A DNA stretch of 64,000 bases, from contig CM022671.1 in assembly GCA_012295275.1 (NCBI GenBank), forward strand, positions 22,692,001 to 22,756,000, written 5' to 3'. Positions 9,901-15,900 of this stretch are shown here, one piece after another. The notes beneath the pieces were generated by a model. It worked only from the letters and a program-made list of their open reading frames with translations, made no database searches and was not told the DNA's origin. Origin of the DNA: Chrysomallon squamiferum (taxonomy: Eukaryota; Animalia; Mollusca). The position numbers and the translations under genes are program-made. Position 1 is the stretch's first letter. Each line of letters starts with the position of its first letter.

Positions 9901-12900
9901 ATTTCAAATTTGAATTTGATTTATGTGGCAATAAATAAAGAATATAAAAATTGCAATTTTAACAGGTACCACTTTGATTTTAATAAAAATGAAGCTTATA
10001 ACTTTGTTTTAGAATAAATTTTAATACCTTGTTACATTTATTTTTAGTTTAAAAATGTCATTTTGTAAAAATAAAAAATAAAAAATAATAATTAAATTGC
10101 ATTTTTAAGTTTTGTGTATTGTTTTGAAATCTTGAAATATGACTTTTAATGACAACAACAACAACAAAAAAATGCTAACAGTTTTGTCTTGTCTTAACTT
10201 TTTAAATTAATTCATTTTAAAAAGATTGCCAAGAAATGAAAAAGACTGATAAAATTATGGCAAACACAAAACTGGCACAAGTAATATTAATATTTTTAAT
10301 TTTTTTTATTACAATAATGAAAAATTATTTCTTTTTTTTTTAACAGCCCTACCTCCTTCCTGCCTCAAAGTTGTTCTTGAGAAACTCATTGTTTGCTGTC
10401 ATGTGCTGCTCTTTGTTAAACAGGAGATGGTTTGCAATATTTTGCATGATTTTACACATCAGTGTCAGTCCTCGCTTGATTCGAGGTGTAGGCTCCTCTT
10501 CAACTATGCCAGACTCGTAAGGAGAAACTAAATAGCACAAAATATTTACAAGTCAAATGCCACAAACAACAACTTAATTTCTTGAGATAATGACGCAAAT
10601 AAATACACACTGAATAATAGAAAAATCTTTAAAAGTTATTAAAACTATTCTAAAATTACAGAATGACTAGATATTAATATTTGTTAAAAATAACAAAAAA
10701 TTTAAGAAATATAACATATAATTACAAAAGAACTTTATATAGTTATAATTTTTTTAAATTTTAATTGCACTAACATAACTAAAGAAATAAACTTAAATAC
10801 TTAAATTCTTAAAATTTAATTACAACAGTAAACCTGATTGTGTTTTAAAATAATTTTAGTAAGTTTAATTAAATTCAAATAACTTATGAAAAGTAAATAA
10901 AATTACATTTATAAATTCTTAAGGCTATCAAAAGTATAAAATATGATTTAACACTAACAAATAAAATTTATGAAGAAAAGCTGAATATGTCACAGTTCTT
11001 TAAAAAATATTTGTAAAATTTCACAAACAAAACTATGTATCATATATTATATACTTACTTAATGCAAAAATTAATTTAAAACAAAAATAGAAAATCTAAA
11101 AATGTAAAAACTTTATAAATTCAATTTACTTTATAGAACTATTTCTTTCAAAAATTAAAAACATTATATTGAAAAATATTATTTTTACAAATTATTTAAA
11201 ATTGATAAGCATTAAATTTAAAAAAGAAGCCATTTAAAATAAAACTTAGATATATAACTACCAATATGTATAATATTGATTTTATTGCAAATAAATTTAT
11301 TTTCTCAACTTCCCTATTAGCATAACAAAACTTTAAAGGACAGCAAGTCATTAAGAATGAATAATATATATCTGTTTATCATTAAAACAAATACATGCTG
11401 TAAAATGTACTGCAAGATAAAATTTCCTTTCAAAATAAAAATGAATATATAAAATACAGAATTATTGAACATTTAAGGAAAAAACTGGAACTGGATTTAA
11501 TATAATAATAAAGATGTATTTTGGAAATAATATATCAACTCAGAAAAATGTATTAAAATTAAATAAGATGTACGTGATGAAAAAAACATGAAATAACAGA
11601 TTTGAAAATTATATTATCATTTATAATTAATGATCTACTCTACAGCTGTTACAGTTAAACTATATAATTCTTCTAAAACACTATTTAGTCATGCAAATTA
11701 TAAAAATAATTAACAGCGTTAATAAAGCTGATTAAAGATAAATTACAGAGAATAATATAAGTTTATAAGCAAAGAAATAAATATATAAAAACAATAACAG
11801 TAACTAGATTAAATATATAGTAACAATAATACTAAACAAATTTAAAAAGAAAAACAATAAGAAAAATAAATACTTTAATAAATAGAAAAGTAAGAAAAAT
11901 AAATATAAATAAATAAATAAAAATAAATAAATAAATATATATAAATAAATAAATAAATAAATAAATAAATAACAATAAAAAAATTATATTAAAAAAGGGG
12001 AAAAGAACAAAAACCATTCTTATTTCATGAAGGAGATAACAGTTATTTTTTTCCACTTCTTCCTGTGAGATAAATATTGTATGCTGATTTAAAAGTGCTG
12101 GGGTATACTCATCATACTCATGTTTTCTGGATGACCAGCATTTTTTTTTATATTATTATTTGTTGATGAAACTTACTACATACAGTGTAAAGAAATAAAA
12201 GTAATATAGCTGTAACAATAAACTTATTATGATTTAAAATCATTTTTAAAATAATAATAGGACTTAAAATGTTTTGAAATTCCACATTTACCTTTGAGCT
12301 AAGATGTATTAACTGTTCATAAAAAAAGAAAAGAAAAAGGAATATGAGAAATAATATAGCAGAATTTATATCTTTTGTATCTATCCCAACACAGCAGTCG
12401 ACTGAAAACATTTTTTTATTCCTCTTTATTTCACTCAAACTGCTTAAAAGTGAACAGTTATCTCCCTTAAAAAAAAAAAAAAATAAAAAAATAAATAAAT
12501 AAATAATAAATAAATAAAAATAAAAATAAAAATAAAAATAAATAAATAAGAAAGGGAAAAAACAAAACAATAAGAGACTAAGAAAAATCTCGATAAACAC
12601 ACCCACATCAAGTTAAAAAGATCACATCACAAAATGTCCATCAAAGAGAGGTCAAAGGTTACCTATCGCAGGATTGATGAAGCGTAAGAATATCACAGTG
12701 CCTATGACTGTCCAGACTGCCTCGGCACTGCTTTGCTGAAAACGCTGGGTTACCACCTGGTATAAACAGTGGCACATACCACGCAATTTGGCTGGAAACC
12801 TGGTAATATGCACAAAATGTGTTATGTGAGTCATGCTACATAGGAATACATATATAGCTGGCTTCTTTATTATGAATGTGAGTTCAGGCCCATCAGACAA

Positions 12901-15900
12901 AATGCATGAATGTTTTGTAATGATGAAATGATTATTAAGGTGGCATATGTGAAAAAATTAAATTAAATTAAAAAAAGCAGATAAACGCAATAATGTAAGA
13001 AAAGCAGCCCATTTTGGTTGTGCAAGAAAGCTAAAAAGTATAACTGGGTGAAATAAAAATGTAAAAATTCATATGCATTGAAATGCATGCTGAAGGAGTT
13101 TCCGAGACAGTGCTTTGGTTAAAAGTTCTTCCTTTGAAAGGTAAGAAAAAGAATTGTGGAAGGTAGCAAGCTAGTCCATAAAACAGAATATTACAGATTT
13201 TGTTTTTGTTAACTGTTTTAATTATTATTTCTTTTTGAGTGAAAGTTTTCAATTTACTGATTAAAAATACGATGAATAATAAAATAATAATAATTCAGCA
13301 AAAAAAAAAAAAAAATTAATTTAAAAAACAACTTTATTCTGATTTTATTATTTTTTTTTTTTTTTGTTTGTTTTTTTTCAAAGAAGAAAATAAAAACTTA
13401 AATTCACAAATAATGTGGGCTGGCTTATCATACATTCATGAAATATTAACAAGTAAGCAAATTATCTAAATAAAAATGGCAAATAAAAAAAGCATTTTAA
13501 TAAAATGATTAAAGGTGTTTTCTCAGGCAGTGTTACTCAATAAACTAATTATGTAAGGTAAATACTAAAAACTAAATTTAAAAAAAAAAAAAACAATAAG
13601 AAAAGAATTTAAAAATTCTAAAATAAAATAAAAACTATAAATATGTTAATTTAATTACATTATTCATTTATTTTATTATAAAGAAATTGAAACATATGAG
13701 AATCTGTTTACAAATCTATATTGAACTAATCAACTTAATTAGATTTCAAACGACAAAATAACAATTAACACACAGATTGGCAAAACTGCCTAATTAATAA
13801 AACACCTTTAATGAAAGCACTAAATAATGATTATGAATAGTGGTGACAATCCAGTGTATGGTTAATAACCTGTTAGTAATTAGATAGGCAAAATTCAGCC
13901 AGGCAAGCAATAAAGGGACATAACTCTGTTTACGTCCGATGCTGGTTACCTAAGGCTGGGTTGTAAAACCGTAGGAATATAATGGTTCCTGTGGCAGTAA
14001 TGTTATCCTGAGGGAAACGGAGGTTGACCACCTGGTCAAGACAGTGGCACATCGTTCTCAGTTTAGGAGGAAATCTGGCAAAAGTCACGCCATGCAGACG
14101 TTAACACATTTCACATGCGTTCATTGGTATAAAACAAACATGGCGGCCCTCAAGGCAGAACAATTTTTTTTATTAAGTAAACTGGATAATTTGATTTCAT
14201 TGTTTTTTTTTTTGTAGCAAACAAAATTTATTGATTTTAAAATTTTGTATTTTCGTTTTAAATGAAATTTTTTTTTAGTATTTTTATTACTTTAAAAATA
14301 TTTTATTTGAAATTAATTTTGAAAAAGTCTTTAGAAATTATTTTCTTTTTAATATTTTTTCAATTTAATATTCCTGTTTAATTATTTTTTTGAAGACACT
14401 GACCAAAATATTTTCTGTCAGCATTTAAGTTCATGTAAATCTTTCTTTTTTTTAATGTGAAAAAAAGGGAAAAAAAAAAGAATAAAAATAAAAAAGAATA
14501 AATAAAATTATAATCTCCATTATTTTCACAAAAATTAAGGTTAACACAATTTGCCCTATTTAAATTTTTTCTTTAATTTTTATTTTTTGGAGATTGTTAT
14601 TTAACTGATATGGGGAAAAAATAATGAAAAAATAAAAAATAAATAAATAAGAAGTGCATTTAAGGAAGCAACTCGAACATAAACAAAAGCAAAGAAAAAA
14701 TAATGAAAAAAATCATGAAATAAACTATATGCAGATCTGTTTTAAAAAACAGAATTATTTCTTCTAAAGCAATAAAAATATGAATATAACTGAATTTTTT
14801 GGTTATTTTTATTGCCTGATTAAATATTTTAAATAATTTAATAAATATATATCAATGAAATACTAAATAATTTTTAAATCTAAATTATAATATTTAAATT
14901 AAGCACTATGGATGTGTCACATTGAGAATTTCATGTTTCTATTATTTATCCTTTCTTCGTTTAATTTGTAGAAAAAAAAGAGGCCATAATTCCCAATAAT
15001 AATAATAAAATTAAAAAAAAAAAAAAACAATTAACCCCCACCAAAACACCACCTCAATTTGATATTCTCGTACCATCTTTTCTTTTTTCTCTCATTCATA
15101 TAATAATTCAATACTGATGTAATTATATTTTTAAAATTAAAATAAAAGTACCACTCTTATGTTATTTTGTAAAAGTTATTTCACCAAAATGTTTGAGTGA
15201 TACCAATTGTTTATAATGCAGTTTTCTGAATGTTTACCTTGGTGCTGATCCAACAATTGCATTGAAGACTTTTTGAGTTATTGTGAGCAAATTCTGTCTG
15301 TTTGCATCAATGTTTTCTCCTGGCTCCAGCCTGTAAAAATTCATTAATTTATATACATATAATATATAAATGCAGTTAGGAAATAATAATTAAAAAAAAA
15401 AAAAAGAAGATACAATCCACCATTTTTTACTTTATTGATTATTTAAATGAGTATAGTTTTAAAATTATGATTTTCTAACCCAAAAGTATTAATATTTAAG
15501 AATCTCTATCATTTAAAGCCAACTTGGCAAATACCTTTTTTTTTTTTTTTAAATACACACACACACACACACACACACACACAAATGATATTTTAAGTAG
15601 ATTTAACATCAGTAATACATTTTTTAGCCATAAATACTTAAAAGCATATGTTAACACTCTTAATGATGTTTAAAAAGGACATTAAATTAAAATAAAATTG
15701 CAGATTAGATTTCATTAAAAATATGAAAATAAAAACACTGAATCTTTAATATTTAAACAGATGTGGAATAACTGATTTAAAAAATCACACCTGCATCTGC
15801 TGACTTAATAAATTCATAAACAAACAATTAATACTAAGTAATAAAAATGAGTTATCAAACTGAGTTAAAAATGGCAACAACAGAAATAAAATCGACTGAA

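Follow-up and report, generated by a model that had tools for sequence, protein, structure and literature searches.

Two tandem versions of one exon, apparently used one at a time, encode the FLR segment of the neurofibromin GAP domain in Chrysomallon squamiferum and other molluscs

Neurofibromin (NF1) is a major brake on Ras. Why should its gene in the mollusc Chrysomallon squamiferum carry two homologous exons, one behind the other, for the same part of the GRD, the domain related to GTPase-activating proteins (GAPs), and how are these two used? The pair, named exon A and exon B, lies in a stretch of 64,000 nucleotides (nt) (GenBank assembly GCA_012295275.1, contig CM022671.1, positions 22,692,001 to 22,756,000), which is called the window throughout. 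The analysis of this window and of related sequences identifies A and B as an almost certainly mutually exclusive pair. The explanation that we favour, and consider probable, is an old tandem duplicate of which one copy is used at a time, the swap tuning GAP activity or its regulation indirectly and, as predicted, in a tissue-specific pattern.

Among named proteins, Gigantopelta aegis isoform X2 comes nearest to the NF1 encoded in the window: of the first 1490 residues, 1315 belong to identical stretches of at least 8 amino acids (aa), and a few residues differ. Exons A and B are located between two constitutive exons, U and D (Table 1). Both are bounded by similar splice sites, cag|A...TAG|gtaacc for A and cag|G...TAG|gtaacc for B, and they share the same phase, so the reading frame is open through U-A-D and through U-B-D. 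With full-length exons stops are met in U-A-B-D, U-B-A-D and U-D. A preliminary description of this locus had reported two intact paralogous exons of 125 and 137 nt with cag/gtaacc sites, and the frame and splice-site check confirms these exons, their sites and their peptides. It had also held that taking both exons or neither shifts the frame. This is true of skipping and of full-length A, but not of every conceivable transcript: an internal GT at position 13969, within the FLR arginine codon of A, could splice a shortened A to B in frame. No such join is present in the RNA contigs of this organism, and no A-B joint of any kind is seen in them. Nor does the window contain a third copy of the exon.

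Table 1. Features of the NF1 locus in the window, with positions counted from the first letter of the window
Feature	Positions	Strand	Evidence or remark
Neurofibromin (NF1), host gene, residues 1 to ~1483 (first half)	849..39715	(-)	tblastn with P0271
Exon U, constitutive, upstream, ends in phase 2	15238..15330	(-)	frame, splice sites, RNA loose ends, tblastn
Exon A, alternative, 125 nt, 41 aa, FLRFYNP	13950..14074	(-)	frames, Pfam match, RNA joint to D
Exon B, alternative, 137 nt, 45 aa, FLRFINP	12663..12799	(-)	frames, Pfam match, conservation
Exon D, constitutive, downstream	10353..10527	(-)	frame; RNA joints on both sides
Bipartite ACTAAC-N7-TAAC (STAR/QKI-type consensus), candidate enhancer of A inclusion	13861..13877	(-)	73 nt after donor of A
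TGCATG, weak lead	14091..14096	(-)	22 nt before exon A

A comparison of the two peptides shows that 27 of 41 aligned residues are identical (66%), with the same codon in 11 of these 27. Their synonymous sites are saturated (proportion of synonymous differences, pS, 0.77), and A and B are therefore neither a pair of alleles nor an assembly duplicate. Each exon alone exceeds the Pfam RasGAP cut-off of 28.3 bits (28.6 and 41.3 bits), and both match positions 130-174 of the Pfam RasGAP model. The segment starts at F1357 of human NF1. Exon A has the human length and B carries four additional residues, which refines the earlier statement of a loop 4 aa longer: the difference in length stands, and B is the lengthened copy. 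Exon A is identical to the corresponding segment of Gigantopelta aegis isoform X2. Exon B is 84-96% identical to the B of named molluscs and nemerteans, reaching 96% with other gastropods.

Exon A is spliced in this organism. Four of five available runs (X1-X3 and X5) were compared over positions 9500-14200; the RNA evidence comes from three RNA runs of a single study, as contigs without tissue labels. The joint 13950->10527, from A to D, is found in all three RNA runs. In two of them (X1 and X2) the loose end at the start of exon A corresponds to the end of U, and one continuous 6001-nt contig passes through A, D and the next exon; the U-A junction rests on the loose-end sequence and this single contig. 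Among the junctions named in the preliminary description, the A to D joint is thus recovered, and none using B is.

Gene models of relatives also point to an either/or use of the two exons. In Ruditapes philippinarum, XP_060559140.1 (isoform X1) and XP_060559142.1 (X3) differ only in this segment, and the same holds for XP_052834124.1 (X1) and XP_052834125.1 (X2) of Octopus bimaculoides. These model pairs, together with the splicing of A in RNA, support the exclusive use that had been proposed. A clean A model accompanied by a clean B model is found in 10 of 38 mollusc entries, comprising the bivalves Crassostrea angulata, Ostrea edulis, Mytilus edulis and Ruditapes as well as Haliotis cracherodii/rufescens, Patella vulgata, P. 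caerulea, Babylonia, Pomacea and O. bimaculoides, that is gastropods, bivalves and a cephalopod. The segment is missing in two of the other entries, and the rest have one form or a fusion. The 38 entries are those with readable models, up to 15 of which were listed per cluster, and a species described as having A or B only does so among the models listed. The models are automatic annotations, compared as such, apart from their underlying reads. Outside the molluscs, and again among the models listed, Lingula, Ridgeia, Lamellibrachia and Owenia have an A-like form of 41 aa and Tubulanus carries B, while arthropod sequences have one single form of 43-44 aa.

The same arrangement is present in metagenomes, where 16 of 67 loci contain A followed by B. 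Six of the 16 have enough flanking exon to be placed, with Ridgeia or Lamellibrachia as best match; two more were tested and are too short to place, and eight lie outside the placement test. Where their flanks allow a judgement, the tandem loci thus apparently derive from annelids. All 16 have the same phase, intact splice sites and open frames. In annelid-like loci (L031-L057) exon A starts 15 nt earlier and in frame, adding five residues; the Ridgeia model P0290 also has a short extension ahead of A. Pooled pairwise ratios of nonsynonymous to synonymous substitution rates (dN/dS), from pairs that are not independent, amount to 0.087 for A and 0.021 for B. Judged from these sequences, both copies are under purifying selection and the order A then B is conserved. 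The saturation, the codon usage and these ratios agree with the old duplication under purifying selection that had been suggested, and A was found intact in relatives as well as spliced, where its loss or a collapse of two alleles had been considered as the opposite outcome. Exon B is the more conserved copy: across the same seven genera its identity is 0.87 vs 0.74 for A, and A is the less conserved in 19 of their 21 pairs.

How old is the pair? The lineages of gastropods, bivalves and cephalopods separated in the Cambrian. Since clean pairs occur in gastropods, bivalves and a cephalopod, the pair is at least as old as this split and probably older. Exon trees (51 rows, 45 columns, P0204 left out) unite the mollusc A copies as a clade (100/98). 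That all A copies go back to a single origin is compatible with the approximately unbiased test (p-AU 0.515) but not demonstrated, and the best tree puts mollusc A with B, an unsupported grouping. Mollusc A and B have K at position 4 in common, and annelid-type A keeps Q. Because of this shared K, gene conversion or a second duplication is possible, and the best tree likewise leaves room for separate duplications or gene conversion.

What does the swap change in the protein? According to the alignment it exchanges the FLR helix, the helix that precedes it and the linker in between. AlphaFold models of the Ruditapes A domain and the Octopus B domain, from different species and modelled without Ras, have a predicted local distance difference test (pLDDT) value of 88, and both helices are of equal length in the two. 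In these models the four extra residues of B would fall in the inter-helix linker, extending it from about one to about five residues. Both modelled domains match the NF1 GRD structures 7r04 and 6v65 (template modelling, TM, score 0.93 to 6v65). In the KRAS-NF1-SPRED1 structure only four residues within human 1357-1397 contact KRAS, namely L1390, R1391, N1394 and P1395 (Table S2 of PMC7437355). All four are the same in each of the 39 A and B sequences, every one of which also has FLR, and the most variable positions, 1369, 1374 and the linker, lie off the Ras interface. Position 1377 separates the two forms completely, with P in 23 of 23 A and Q in 16 of 16 B sequences, and the linker is a further fixed difference. 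All 11 mollusc A sequences have T at 1384 (human V1384) and Y or F at 1393 (human I1393), on the helix that carries R1391.

The preliminary description had proposed that the exons alter which Ras-family GTPase NF1 acts on. In its favour, the FLR helix, which contacts switch II, is part of the segment, and A and B have kept fixed differences over long times. However, the four KRAS contacts are the same in every sequence and the other contacts lie in shared exons. With these contacts invariant, a changed Ras specificity is very unlikely and indirect tuning is the more likely effect.

Vertebrate NF1 provides a precedent for such tuning. Alternative exon 23a is inserted between Q1370 and V1371 (PMC8580823), thus inside the segment, as had been stated before. 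It lowers GAP activity up to about tenfold without direct Ras contact (PMC8580823; PMC12352984), and simulations describe its effect as allosteric (PMC11751910). From the invariant contacts, the off-interface differences and this precedent, we infer that the substrate stays the same and that the tuning is indirect. The analysis suggests that A and B probably differ in activity or regulation.

A related explanation is that the swap alters a partner or a conformation, such as SPRED recruitment, packing of the closed dimer or membrane contact, with the isolated GRDs equally active. The off-interface location of positions 1369 and 1374 and of the linker would suit it, and the loop formed by 23a in the same segment faces the membrane in the open state (PMC8580823). 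Moreover, H1366 within the segment touches SPRED1 in the human structure (PMC7437355). This residue is kept in 36 of 39 sequences, and within a lineage it is the same in A and B, being H in most and N in Octopus, which does not favour a difference in SPRED recruitment. The substitutions V1384T and I1393Y/F are furthermore found on the catalytic-support helix itself. Overall we regard this explanation as unlikely. The N at H1366 is present in both exon copies of Octopus bimaculoides (P0128, P0130) and is a parallel change or a gene conversion between the copies.

The choice between the exons may be controlled from the intron following A. A bipartite motif of the STAR/QKI-type consensus (PMC3875643) is located shortly after the donor of A in the window (Table 1). 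CTAAC, the clearest element that the window and the loci have in common, occurs at +68 to +112 after this donor in 15 of 17 sequences (the window and 14 of 16 related loci), compared with a background of 0.079 per scanning window elsewhere in the intron. QKI bound downstream promotes exon inclusion, and human NF1 'exon 23', here taken to be 23a, is QKI-activated via its downstream intron (PMC9122611). Control of the exon choice by QKI/HOW is suggested by these sequences, and we rate it as tentative, a little short of evenly balanced.

Two other candidates for splice control were rejected. TGCATG before exon A, which we take to be an Rbfox-type motif, is present in the window and in only 2 of the 16 loci, in one of them at a similar distance, and does not qualify as a conserved element. 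Pairing of a docking site with selector RNA underlies exclusion of the Dscam type. Among six pairs of flanks in 15 sequences, over the 120-150 nt next to the exons, no RNA pairing is indicated (mean duplex z-scores -0.10 to +0.48), and a GGTTGC/GCAACC pair that had been noticed by eye around B was not borne out.

Taken together, these results can be accommodated in one mechanism. The swap would alter the way in which R1391 is held together with its helix or, alternatively, the packing of the GRD in the closed dimer or its contact with the membrane, and the GAP rate would be changed indirectly, as by exon 23a in vertebrates. Exon B would be the default or neural form, and in muscle-type or other non-neural tissue A would be promoted by a STAR protein (QKI/HOW) that binds immediately downstream of this exon. 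Out-of-frame products are targets of nonsense-mediated decay, and the wrong products, with both exons or with neither, would be removed by it. In its widest form the proposal says that since the ancestor of molluscs and annelids an either/or NF1 exon under QKI/HOW control has set GAP strength in neurons versus muscle-type tissue, and that vertebrates later reinvented the switch with 23a, in the same 41 residues and with the same splicing regulator. We consider this wide form doubtful, although worth stating. If it were true, the two natural versions would show how NF1 activity is raised or lowered without touching the Ras contact.

Several observations weigh against this mechanism or parts of it. 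Spliced B is seen in none of the three RNA runs, although contigs drop rare forms and a U-B joint could have appeared in them as no more than a loose end. All contigs over exon B are of low depth and unspliced, with intron on either side. Unspliced contig coverage over 12559-13257, which includes exon B together with its upstream intron, is found in all three RNA runs and may come from pre-mRNA, intron retention or DNA. In addition, B is present in 15 of 15 listed Lineus isoforms (of 21), and the annelid-like loci L022, L027 and L028 lack A, the gap on either side of B measuring 114-225 nt. A is thus dispensable in some lineages. L029 likewise has only exon B with short flanking introns, and A has apparently been lost in all four loci. 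In four sacoglossan GenBank models (P0269, P0456, P0457, P0462) a shortened A runs on in frame into B from the internal donor in the FLR arginine codon, where the window has its GT at the same place. We read these fusions as prediction artefacts because two helices would be duplicated. The functional effect of the swap may also be small, since the Ras-contact residues are the same in A and B. Regarding the control, the bipartite motif is not rare, with 22 matches in the window vs 46 expected, and the 16 loci are close relatives, so that the CTAAC count represents about two independent lineages. For both reasons the QKI/HOW element is a lead.

Could B then be no longer spliced in this species, or the pair be an artefact of assembly? 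The restriction of B to unspliced contigs would fit. However, B is intact with good splice sites and is 96% identical to other gastropod B exons, and run X5 has no change listed within B, though the flanks of B differ. The synonymous saturation between A and B and the A-B order in 16 loci also contradict an artefact, and the chance of either is practically negligible. A different reading, which the loss of A in some lineages would suit, is that the two proteins hardly differ and that the pair persists mainly as a splicing device, perhaps for setting the NF1 level via frame-shifting double inclusion or skipping. Both wrong products are indeed out of frame, and the weaker conservation of A in 19 of 21 pairs would also agree with this. 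On the other hand, the dN/dS of A is 0.087, and three mollusc classes share fixed residues of A that differ from those of B. Such residues would be superfluous in a pure level switch, and we consider a mere splicing device most unlikely. Indirect tuning of the GAP domain by two exclusive exons is retained as the preferred explanation.

The NF1 gene of the window has further variation in the same region. The 8.8-kb intron that follows 9745 contains a 54-nt in-frame cassette exon (4863-4810, minus strand), which P0271 lacks and which isoforms of Haliotis, Patella and Babylonia possess. Its 18 aa are added at human N1504/R1505, within the C-terminal GAPex part and between residues listed near the SPRED1 site, and it is a second alternative exon within the same GAP domain. 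Smaller alternative segments in mollusc NF1 (P0029 vs P0141, P0272, P0277) include 4 aa in Ruditapes, a stretch of 6 aa in Mytilus at the R1505 boundary, and inserts of variable sequence or size directly after the GAP domain. Upstream of NF1, an uninterrupted frame of 407 codons (56373-55153, minus strand) matches Pfam Anp1 (E 4e-56) and Glycos_transf_2 and is apparently an intronless glycosyltransferase gene.

A search of the literature found no description of mutually exclusive or duplicated exons in NF1 or another RasGAP domain; it covered few subscription journals, and gene tables of exon duplications or bioRxiv supplements could mention NF1. The pair is real, old and apparently undescribed in papers, and it is convergent in position with 23a. 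Both isoforms are already in automatic annotations, unremarked. With this pair the segment has a second isoform switch of independent origin, kept in three mollusc classes and apparently in annelids, and convergent alternative splicing would gain a signalling enzyme as a further case. As the two GRDs differ only off the Ras interface, they make indirect control of the GAP rate directly testable. The finding is relevant to mollusc learning models and to gene annotation, in which a single model contains one of the exons or a fusion of the two.

Substitutions of tandem duplicated exons form a well described class, often ancient and convergent (PMC9741552). The A/B pair resembles the catalogued examples (PMC9741552, PMC8373072) in having adjacent homologous exons of equal phase, ancient origin, a conserved core and peripheral substitutions. 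Exons 4a and 4b of OGDH are exclusive via distant branch points, which sit at 25-41 nt from the donor and have an extended zone free of AG (PMC7969005). They share with A and B the homologous pair and a branch-point-like sequence soon after the first donor. Unlike in OGDH, the motif here is at +68 to +112 and is followed by 16-128 AG dinucleotides, and the AG-free zone before B is only 3-55 nt. An OGDH-type distant branch point, expected within about 50 nt of the upstream donor, was rejected for these reasons. The intronic CUAAC or NACUAAY-N1-20-UAAY element is shared with switches of STAR proteins, such as C. elegans ASD-2 on unc-60 and vertebrate QKI; binding and effect are shown there, whereas a motif and its conserved position are seen here.

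The closest comparison is with exon 23a (exon 31; isoforms I and II), which is not known outside vertebrates. Neither A nor B contains a 63-nt lysine-rich insert of the 23a type or an exon boundary at Q1370/V1371. In vertebrates a 63-nt cassette is inserted and its effect on activity has been measured; in the window a whole duplicated exon is swapped, adding four residues in the next linker and substitutions in the FLR helix, and the pair is known from sequence and models. The A/B pair is not homologous to 23a but may work like it: both systems belong to the same gene and the same 41-residue segment, both yield two GRD isoforms with unchanged Ras contacts, and the human exon is activated by QKI through its downstream intron, as a QKI-type motif follows exon A in the window.

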